Below are positions 1 to 58,922 of a stretch of 64,000 nt of DNA, in pieces. Both the position numbers and the translations under genes were made by a program. The stretch spans positions 87,296,001 through 87,360,000 of the forward strand of contig OX597825.1 of the NCBI GenBank assembly GCA_951406725.2. The letters run 5' to 3'. The notes under the pieces were generated by a model. That model was not told where the DNA came from. It did not search any database and saw only the letters and a list, made by a program, of their open reading frames with translations. Every line of letters starts with the position of its first letter. Position 1 is the first letter of the stretch. Source of the DNA: Octopus vulgaris. Taxonomy: Eukaryota.

Positions 1-993
1 GAGAGTCGAGCACAGAATGCGGTGTAGGAAACCGAATAACAGCATCAGATTCAGCGTGAAAAATTACATCAATATACCAACTTTGAAAATGTTTCATTTG
101 AAAATTTCAAAAAGTGTAAGCCAAACATAAAAGATCCTAATATCCTTCCAACAAATATTGAAGCCGTGAGAACCATAAATAAGAAACGAAACTATAACCA
201 GCTGTCACCTCTTGTAATATTTAATGAAATATACGTATTCAAAATATAATTTACTGTGAACAAAAAAAAAAAAAAGGAAAAGATGACAAAATTTCGAGCG
301 GGGAAACATTTTATGAAGACAGAAACAATAGATAATCAAAAGTGGGGGTGGGGACAAGAAGAAAAATCTGTGTTGGTGCCATGAAATAATGGTAAACAGA
401 AATGAAAGGGTAAAGTGGAATGTGACTTCTGATTTGAAGAAAGGGACGTCGGAGTGTAAACAGAAATGTCTTTCAGACACAAGACCAATCAGACCATTAT
501 AGACCATTCTGTTTTGTTATAGAAAATGGTGGAGAGATCCCTTCAAGAATCCCAGATAAAGTGAAAGTATTTAAATAGGAATTAAAACTGGTTTATGGAT
601 TCCAAATGATTCGAACTTATGAATAGGAAAAGAAACGAAAATTCGAATGAACAACAGGAAACGTTAGAAGCAAAACTGTCTTTACCGTTTCTCTCTAAAT
701 GGAACCTTCCATTATCTTATGTAAATAGAAATTAATTCTATCTCGAATACTCAGTACATAAGGACATGATTTAATTAACGTCAGGTTGTTTACTACTAAT
801 TAAAAAAAAAAACAGTGGTGTAGCGAGGCTATAAGAGACTACCAGGCATAAGTAAAGCTTCTCATACATAGCAAACAGTCACAGATACACACGACCGACC
901 GACCGACCGACCGACTATATAACGGGAAATACTAATGGGAAGAGAAAATATCTCTATTCCCTAACCCCCTCTCCTCCTCCTTCCTCTTCTTCT

Positions 994-2989: not shown

Positions 2990-3168
2990 GCTCCTGCACG
3001 CATTCTTTTTCTCTCCTTGTTTCTCTGCTTGTTTCTTTTCTGTGTATCTTTCTGTCGAAGAGCGTAGGCTCGAAACGTAAAAGACTTGTTCTATTTCTAT
3101 TCCTGAGCACCATACTAATACAATTGTTTGTTTGTACTCCACCTGACTTCGTCTTTTGTTTATTTTCG

Positions 3169-9159: not shown

Positions 9160-9223
<64 letters not shown>

Positions 9224-9224
<1 letters not shown>

Positions 9225-9317
9225 CATCAGAGTATCACAACAAATCACAGCACATACCCAAGGCACACAGTGCTGCGCTCGGTAGTGAAGTGAAAGCACG
9301 CTATAAAAATAAAACTA

Positions 9318-9321
<4 letters not shown>
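9224..9321 (+). mobile_element. Probable 3' terminal fragment of an R4/Dong-type LINE between two (TAA)n arrays
   Basis: CCCAAGGCACACAGTGCTGCGCTCGGTAGTGAAG...AGCACGCTATAAAAA resembles the 3' UTR end at 44500-44558. Confidence 0.5.
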
Positions 9322-9373
<52 letters not shown>

Positions 9374-9376
<3 letters not shown>

Positions 9377-9646
9377 AGAAATAAAAAATAGAAGTGTGCC
9401 ATAGTTATCATGTGAAATTGGTTGAACGATATTTCGGCATCTAGCGTGCCTTCCACAGGTTCAAAACTTATATGTCAGACTCCTTAATTTTTTGTTAAGA
9501 TTATATAGGACTGATGTAACTCATCCAGAAGTTATACAGAAATAAAAACAAAAGAGTGCCATAGTTATTATGTGAAGATAACTCTTCTATTTTTTTTATT
9601 TGTGTATAACTTCTGGAGGAGTTACCTCAGTCGTATATAATCTTAA
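9374..9646 (-). mobile_element. Penelope-like pseudo-LTR relic (partial tandem plus inverted copy)
   Basis: Direct repeat 9374-9416 vs 9535-9575; inverted repeat 9495-9557 vs 9581-9646; hammerhead fold at 9422-9464. Confidence 0.55.
9422..9464 (-). ncRNA. Minimal type-I hammerhead-like motif, CUGUGGAA core
   Basis: Reverse complement UUGAAC-CUGUGGAA-GGCA CGCUAGA UGCC-GAAA-UA-UC-GUUCAA; perfect 6-bp stem I, 4-bp stem II, palindromic AUAU, AUC triplet. Confidence 0.65.
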
Positions 9647-10700
9647 TAATGATAATAATAATAGTAATAATAATAGAAAATTACTTGTTTAGCAAATGAC
9701 AAAGATGTTCGATGGAATAAACCGACATCAGTAATTATAGGGTTTCGTTTCAAACACACGTTGCATCCATTGGACATAAAGGTCCGCAATTAAATTACCT
9801 TAATATATTTTATTATAGCAACCCTGTCATAAGCTATATACATCATTATCATCAGTGTATCATAATTATGGAGTAATTTGTGCCGTGTATTTATAGACTG
9901 TTTTAACTCTCTCTCTGATCTATATTAAAACAATGCATAAATAAACATCAGCAAAGAACGGAAATAATAGAGTGTCGGCCATTAGTTCTGAAAGTCGATG
10001 TCTGTGCTTTTGGTATAAATGTGCTAATGTGTCTACAGCGTAATTTTATCATAAGTTTGATATATACAAACAACTATAATAGGTTGTAATTGGTTGAATA
10101 GTTAATTAATTATAACATCGATATATATGATGTGGAAACACTTTCAGAAGTTCTCGCCTGTCAGCTTTTACCATGATTCTGTTCCTAAAACTCGATAGTT
10201 CACGCGCATAATTTGTTACCGAATCATAACTTAATTTGTAATTTCCATTATAATTTCCCGGGTAGACAGTGCACACTTACACCTATTTCCATCTAGAATC
10301 TGCAGCTCCATTATCAACTCACTTCAAAACTTTGTGGAATTACTTTGGCCGTAAATCGTGGGGCGAGATGATAATTTCACATGGTAAAGGTAAGCTGAGA
10401 TGAATAAATGCCATTATCTTTTGTAAATATATATTAGGAGCACTGAACTATTTCAAGACTATAATAATGGGCTTTATAACGAAAGAATCGATATGTAAAT
10501 TTAGTGGTAAGGACTTTAACTCCACATGTTAACATGTAAGTCAAAACTTCTGTCCGTGAACGAAATCTAGTTTGCTTGATGACAGAAAAGGGTCGAACAC
10601 AAACATGGGGAACTTAAAATATATCGATCCAAGATAAAGACTATCGCAAATAACTCGTCGTTATGAATCTTTTAAAACAAACAAGATTGCCTCAAATATT

Positions 10701-57397: not shown

Positions 57398-57570
57398 ATT
57401 CACAAAGAAAACAAAAGACGAAAACAAGTGGTGTAGACAACAAGCAGATGTATTTGTCTAACGCTCGGGAAATGAAAAAGTATTTACCGTTTCGAGCCTA
57501 CGCTCTTCTACAGAAAGGAACACAGAAAGAAACAAGGAGAGAAAATAAAAAATGTGTAGTGCCTATAGGT
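57398..57570 (-). mobile_element. Second copy of the 2990-3175 repeat with degenerate hammerhead-like motif (57481-57518)
   Basis: Reverse complement contains CCUUU-CUGUAGAA-GAGCGUAGGCUC-GAAA-CG-GU-AAAUA; cleavage triplet and stem I decayed. Confidence 0.6.
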
Positions 57571-58803: not shown

Positions 58804-58805
<2 letters not shown>

Positions 58806-58922
58806 TTATGGCCATATCACGTTGAAAGCATCGGTTCTCGTCCGATCACCGAAGTTAAGCAACATTGAGCCTAGTCAGTACTTAGATGGGTGACCGTTTG
58901 GGAAACCTGGGTGCTGTAAGCA
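58804..58922 (+). rRNA. Full-length 5S rRNA-like sequence, probably a pseudogene or the head of a 5S-derived SINE
   Basis: About 119 nt GCTTATGGCCATATCACGTTGAAAGCATCGGTTCTCGTCCGATCACCGAAGTTAAGCAACATTGAGCCTAGTCAGTACTTAGATGGGTGACCGTTTGGGAAACCTGGGTGCTGTAAGCA; terminal stem and A/C boxes recognisable; no oligo-T terminator follows; solitary intronic copy. Confidence 0.9.

Follow-up and report, generated by a model that had tools for sequence, protein, structure and literature searches.

The stretch of DNA analysed here (the window) comprises 64,000 nucleotides of Octopus vulgaris, C12:87,296,001-87,360,000, and genome-wide searches covered the 2.8-Gb assembly. On the minus strand, window positions 9464 to 9422 read UUGAAC-CUGUGGAA-GGCA(CGCUAGA)UGCC-GAAA-UA-UC-GUUCAA. 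Re-reading of the window letters bore out exactly the sequence and stems given for this site by an earlier sequence-only reading, and the comparison motif at 3047-3084 on the plus strand was also found as that reading had described it. The features are listed below, with hammerhead numbering after Cervera & de la Peña 2014; PLE denotes Penelope-like element.

3047..3084, plus strand: U6 minimal hammerhead of a second, unrelated family with high copy number, the pLTR of probable Neptune-type PLEs
9321..9375: microsatellite, (AAT)n, where the insertion ends
9374..9577, minus strand: direct part of the insertion, made up of ~1.25 units of a ~162-nt repeat; its end is the first fixed 3' terminus, ~+52 relative to the cut
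9409..9474, minus strand: predicted extended stem I, with a distal helix (9474-9470 with 9413-9409) that has one mismatch in the window copy
9422..9464, minus strand: type I minimal hammerhead motif
9464-9459 with 9427-9422, minus strand: stem I of this motif
9458-9451, minus strand: core box, including the extra A between 9 and 10.1
9455, minus strand: U6, the sole departure from the PLE minimal hammerhead consensus
9450-9436, minus strand: stem II
9435-9432, minus strand: GAAA
Minus strand: helix III, the palindrome AUAU
Between 9428 and 9427, minus strand: predicted cut site, after C17
9497..9534, minus strand: 38 nt that separate the two termini and correspond to the PLE 'tail'
9578..9644, plus strand: inverted piece with a truncated 5' end; it runs to the second fixed terminus (~+90)
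9644-9675: second (TAA)n, beside the insertion
57482..57517, minus strand: further member of the high-copy U6 family, lightly damaged by an extra base in the helix III palindrome

In this numbering the core of the 9422 motif is C3 U4 G5 U6 G7 G8 A9, followed by the extra A and stem II, and then by G12 A13 A14 A15.1, a U-A, U16.1 and C17. The motif has the features of PLE type I hammerheads, namely a stem I that closes the core, a stem II with G10.1-C11.1, a GAAA box and a UH triplet. The extra nucleotide, A9a, was present in 34/34 copies of the repeat family to which the motif belongs (the 9422 family), and the palindromic AUAU also matches the PLE type. The sequence-only reading had considered the 8-nt core unusual. 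However, an 8-nt box is ordinary for PLE hammerheads, to which CUGANGAH and a palindromic helix III have been assigned as consensus (Cervera & de la Peña 2014, PMC4209133); the sole deviation is U6. All 56/56 representatives in Fig. S3 of that study have A6, and the descriptor used there fixed the catalytic boxes (PMC4209133). A descriptor scan of the window returned two variant (U6) motifs and no canonical motif. The 9422-9464 element is a real type I minimal hammerhead motif as carried by PLEs, and we regard its hammerhead-derived, PLE-associated nature as very probable.

A genome-wide search with the 260 bp surrounding the motif yielded 565 candidates, and the host of the motif was identified as a non-coding repeat unit of ~162 nt. 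Most copies span 1-1.5 units, and one tandem array contains eight, with periods of 167, 161, 163, 146, 165, 156 and 163 nt. The unit has no detectable homology outside the motif to the family of the 3047 motif (best E 0.11), in agreement with the earlier description of an independent repeat family. The 3' ends of 151 distinct segments fell into two windows, +40..55 (68/151) and +85..104 (57/151) from the predicted cut, and 89 of 123 clustered 3' ends abutted TAA/TTA repeats. In the window copy the two 3' termini lie 38 nt apart, and this copy is among the many that carry an inverted 5' piece. The family therefore displays what is expected of PLE-mobilised insertions (a tail and fixed 3' termini, 5' parts that are truncated or inverted, incomplete tandems, and microsatellites as targets). 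As expected of a non-LTR retrozyme, it also forms tandems of a short unit that is non-coding and holds a single type I hammerhead, as seen in the 8-unit array and in dimers. PLE architecture includes a 30-40-nt tail (PMC8557442), which arises from two internal reverse-transcription starts (PMC11167929). The two 3'-end windows of the 9422 family match this two-start tail and so support PLE-type copying.

PLE coding sequence was found in 0/82 9422-family loci searched with one query protein over flanks of mostly 1.5 kb, and the ORF with reverse transcriptase (RT) and GIY-YIG domains expected beside the pLTR-like unit of an autonomous PLE was likewise not found at these 82 loci. The 9422 family therefore looks non-autonomous and retrozyme-like. 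The Penelope or retrozyme setting proposed from the sequence thus gains support from the PLE-type insertion architecture together with the tandem non-coding units. An RLE-type non-LTR element beside several copies was considered as the parent and rejected, because it has the (TAA)n target in common with the family and occurs in either orientation. Pfam analysis of this long shared flanking sequence, a non-LTR element with a restriction-like endonuclease, returned only zf-RVT; its motifs suggest an R4/Dong-like element. The 3' end of such an element occupies 9223-9320 (plus strand) of the window and ends in the same (AAT)n, and the same neighbour was seen again at L003, L007, L025 and L026. Separately, a 137-bp satellite derived from the 162-nt unit, with 14 and 27 units, was observed at L361 and L363 (C1:206.287-206.314 Mb); it arose by deletion of the 5' side of stem I and some of the core, and has GGAA in place of GAAA.

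The state of position 6 was then compared among copies. A 9422-family pattern matched the genome 101 times and the reversed control 0 times. With positions 6-7 left free, U6 was found in 89/94 listed family matches (A in 3, C in 2), the 94 being the 101 matches minus 6 non-family rows and 1 not listed; the homologues, when checked for CUGANGA, thus do not mostly carry it. U6 was found in 30/34 copies anchored downstream of the core and in 134/143 of all motif copies in the family. The nine non-U6 copies sit as scattered singles on the family tree, consistent with the earlier claim of a fixed core rather than random decay. An A6 sub-lineage within the family was rejected, as the 4 A6 copies occupy 4 separate tree positions. 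N7 is mostly G in this family (132/143), and the argument from N7 variability therefore rests on the sister family described below.

A second subfamily (24 rows) has remodelled flanks and has kept the core. The distal stem I pair is U-A in 53 subfamily-1 rows and A-U in 16/24 subfamily-2 rows, in a comparison for which one side was unread in 62/143 rows. RNAalifold detected no covariation among 9 near-identical copies. The full stem covariation claimed by the sequence-only reading requires division: differences between two non-homologous families are not strict covariation, whereas true compensatory changes do occur within families.

The sister family, represented by the 3047 motif, is far larger. 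A general U6 pattern gave 26,892 matches genome-wide versus 87 in the reversed control, and a looser A6 pattern gave 11,441 versus 483. The sister U6 family is linked to GIY-YIG genes: at L081, at L087 and twice in the partial tandem L396/L397, a U6 motif follows the 3' end of GIY-YIG coding sequence at a distance of ~0.7-0.9 kb and in the same orientation. This family, unlike the 9422 family, thus shows the RT plus GIY-YIG ORF beside a pLTR that marks an autonomous PLE. The CX2-5CxxC linker before a C-terminal GIY-YIG, a feature of the Neptune clade, was seen in the related intact ORF P0001, to which the U6-linked ORF fragments are 48-61% identical; the Neptune label is tentative. To avoid circularity, 90 sister-family copies were chosen by a 3' flank pattern (21,440 matches) in which the core was not used. 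The motif was present in 82/90, and U6 in 82/82. In these 82 copies N7 was U30/A22/C17/G13, N17 was A64/U16/C1/G1, and each remaining core position deviated in ≤5 copies. An invariant U6 with N7 in all four states is the pattern expected of a hammerhead under selection, and the free positions, N7 and N17, are those that a catalytic hammerhead leaves free. Selection is likely to have kept the motif core, U6 included. The sister family is invariant in loop II as well, and conservation is therefore not confined to the catalytic positions. Given U6 in 134/143 and 82/82 copies of the two families, neither of which has the canonical CUGANGA (A6) core of PLE minimal hammerheads, the motif was classed as a variant PLE hammerhead.

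Among motifs with the exact stem II of the 3047 family, 723 had a non-U at position 6; C prevailed in the 100 listed, which is what neutral transitions would produce. Contigs from 4 public runs (three organism labels) listed three alternative letters at N7 and none at U6, and A/U variation at N17 was not listed in them. Depth and conservation in these contigs, in which RNA ends are not readable, peaked on the motif. A run search with the sister family as query listed no run on record as RNA. Viral contigs gave 58 pattern matches, of which 53 were parsed and 0 had both stems. A diverged relative of the 3047 family (L053:718 and L142:2633) has kept U6 with paired changes in both stems (GGGC/GCCC and CUCU/AGAG).

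The U6 family shares homology with pLTR families that have the canonical A6. In a tree with positions 4, 6 and 7 masked (73/94 rows after thinning of near-copies; bootstrap not fully settled), the U6 clade (100/100) stands apart from the A6/C4 families, with a small A6 group nested inside it. Among the first 100 of 39,269 related motifs listed, 61 had CUGU, 17 CCGA, 16 CUGA and 6 another core. The youngest intact PLE family, with 99% identical ORFs in 6.2-kb tandem units (L274:1501 and 7665, C10:97.805-97.830 Mb), has a CCGACGAA core (U4C, CCGA) and a stem I mismatch; U4C is a tolerated viroid variant. A canonical A6 minimal hammerhead family with a longer stem II was also observed at (TAA)n (L002:358, L108 and L114). 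A loose pattern designed to reveal additional U6 families was not informative (1,088 matches versus 852 in the control). The variants had been proposed to form a single lineage. This proposal was not upheld: the two families look unrelated, and convergence or module exchange is therefore as likely as one lineage. What the genome contains is a PLE minimal hammerhead with A6U, present in many copies and spread over two unrelated families.

We favour, with a probability of roughly 0.55, a reading of the 9422 locus as a Penelope-type A6U hammerhead on a ~162-nt repeat that is likely copied by a Penelope RT/endonuclease, with putative slow self-cleavage, either dimeric or protein-helped. This reading starts from direct observations of the motif sequence, U6 as a family state, the insertion architecture and the link between the sister family and GIY-YIG genes. 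Under the proposed mechanism, reverse transcription would begin at two internal sites 38 nt apart to give two 3' ends, and the cDNA would insert at (TAA)n. More-than-unit copies would stem from tandem or circular RNA, in which two motifs could pair via the AUAU palindrome and cut after C17. Selection in source elements would hold the core, including U6, and N7 would drift.

That the U6 motif actually cleaves RNA is a prediction from sequence that we hold to be evenly balanced. An A at position 6 is not absolutely required, since a natural A6C hammerhead does cleave, with Mn2+ supporting the reaction better than Mg2+, in which it is slow (PMC7151607, PMC3088659). In pairwise mutagenesis, single mutants across the CUGA region all had low activity, with A6U not singled out in the available text (PMC9901934). 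A PLE hammerhead cleaved only once its protein was added, and catalytic mutants had no effect on PLE insertion in vitro (PMC11167929). For 10/10 natural dimers, the double-hammerhead fold was predicted to lie 12-32 kcal/mol above the MFE, and its stability fell short of that of two single folds by 7-18 kcal/mol. For both window motifs, U6 is paired with A15.1 in the MFE fold, which hints weakly at an inactive monomer fold. The 5' ends of 9422-family copies were not piled at the predicted cut (7/89 within -1..+3 versus 53/89 over -60..+8). An apparent 5'-end peak at phase 1-10 proved to be partly a model-edge artefact, and re-analysis gave no cut-site spike. The 5' ends of 15/89 9422-family copies were mildly clustered in stem/loop II, at phase -11 to -17 (no statistics), which perhaps reflects reverse transcriptase stalling at the hairpin.

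Several of these results would also fit a motif that no longer cuts and has been retained because its structure or its binding of protein acts as a signal, either to the PLE protein or in the handling of transcripts. U6 may then favour an alternative hairpin, formed between U4-G5-U6 and the helix III palindrome. The U6-A15.1 pairing, the lack of a 5'-end pile-up at the cut site, the dispensability of PLE hammerhead cleavage for insertion in vitro (PMC11167929), the weakness of CUGA mutants (PMC9901934) and the invariant loop II of the sister family are all consistent with this explanation. However, the alternative pairing is a minor one (MFE frequency 0.08 and 0.17) and appears in neither centroid, and the sister family varies at precisely the two positions, N7 and N17, that a catalytic core leaves free. 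Loss of cleavage with retention of the motif is a possible but less probable account than the favoured one of slow, assisted self-cleavage.

A6U could also have inactivated a dispensable ribozyme as a neutral mutation and have spread by hitch-hiking in source elements that were successful. Such a history would accommodate the U6, A6 and C4 cores found side by side in sister lineages (among the first 100 of 39,269 listed), the CCGA core and stem I mismatch of the youngest intact PLE family, and the amplification of the 137-bp satellite derivative without the core. It is rendered improbable by the U6 clade (100/100), across which N7 changed repeatedly but U6 and the other core letters were held, with exceptions limited to scattered singles and one small A6 group; by the same A6U change in an unrelated family; and by the compensatory pair change in distal stem I. 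Far more remote is a chance look-alike. Although the isolated 56-nt fold was not unusually stable (z -1.02) and an Rfam search returned no hammerhead match at either threshold, this explanation was refuted by the homology of the U6 family to canonical A6 pLTR families and by the enrichment over controls that the sequence-only reading had called for: 0 variant matches in 200 block dinucleotide shuffles of the window, and 26,892 versus 87 and 101 versus 0 genome-wide against reversed sequence.

The 9422 motif shares with PLE minimal hammerheads the extra nucleotide between 9 and 10.1, the G10.1-C11.1 pair, a palindromic 15.2-16.2 without a helix III loop, short stems, dispersed truncated copies and opposite-strand pairs; its AUAU-C ending also occurs in the published alignment (PMC4209133). 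It differs in that U6 is fixed in both families here, whereas the published motifs examined in that alignment all have A6. The role of PLE minimal hammerheads has been described as unknown (PMC7761336). Like animal non-LTR retrozymes (PMC7229834; bioRxiv 10.64898/2026.07.22.740005), the 9422 family has a short non-coding unit that bears a single type I hammerhead, occurs both as monomers and in tandem, is proposed to be mobilised by PLEs and has given rise to satellites; its ~162-nt unit lies at the low end of the 150-450 bp reported for retrozymes (PMC7229834). The coral and mussel retrozyme hammerheads tested are active in monomeric form, whereas those of axolotl require dimers; circular RNA is produced in every case (PMC7229834; bioRxiv 10.64898/2026.07.22.740005). 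Unlike retrozymes, the 9422 family has a minimal motif with U6, mostly 1-1.5 units, and PLE-type inversions and a tail, and is known here from DNA alone. The phage Bcep176 hammerhead also has a natural change at core position 6; however, that is a single phage sequence with C6, slow in Mg2+ and Mn2+-preferring, whereas U6 is present here in thousands of eukaryotic copies of two unrelated families (PMC3088659, PMC7151607). PAc, a Poseidon element of Anolis, resembles the 9422 family in its PLE pLTR hammerhead and in two RT starts that produce a 30-40-nt tail, but is autonomous, and the available text mentions no position-6 change for it (PMC11167929).

The sole A6U match in the literature concerned twister, not hammerhead, and was set aside. 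Lünse et al. 2017 reportedly surveyed PLE hammerhead variants. That work and Arkhipova et al. 2017 lay outside the literature searched, in which no A6U hammerhead was found, and 'unreported' is therefore provisional.

A bolder proposal, which we advance only tentatively and consider rather doubtful, is that A6U is a working alternative core, rescued by PLE protein or dimerisation, that has arisen independently in two retroelement lineages within this genome, where it outnumbers the canonical core. If so, standard CUGANGA descriptors miss A6U entirely. If U6 cleaves, the accepted invariant core is too narrow and descriptor-based counts of animal ribozymes are too low; the scale of the possible undercount here is indicated by the U6 matches (26,892) against those of the looser A6 pattern (11,441). 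One genome also provides a natural experiment, in which homologous pLTRs with A6, U6 and C4 cores and an unrelated U6 family have all transposed successfully. A side-by-side comparison of A6, U6 and C4 would bear on whether catalysis or the fold alone is selected. Elsewhere in the window, at 58804-58922 (plus strand), a full-length, isolated 5S rRNA match (106 bits) was observed between (TA)n repeats.
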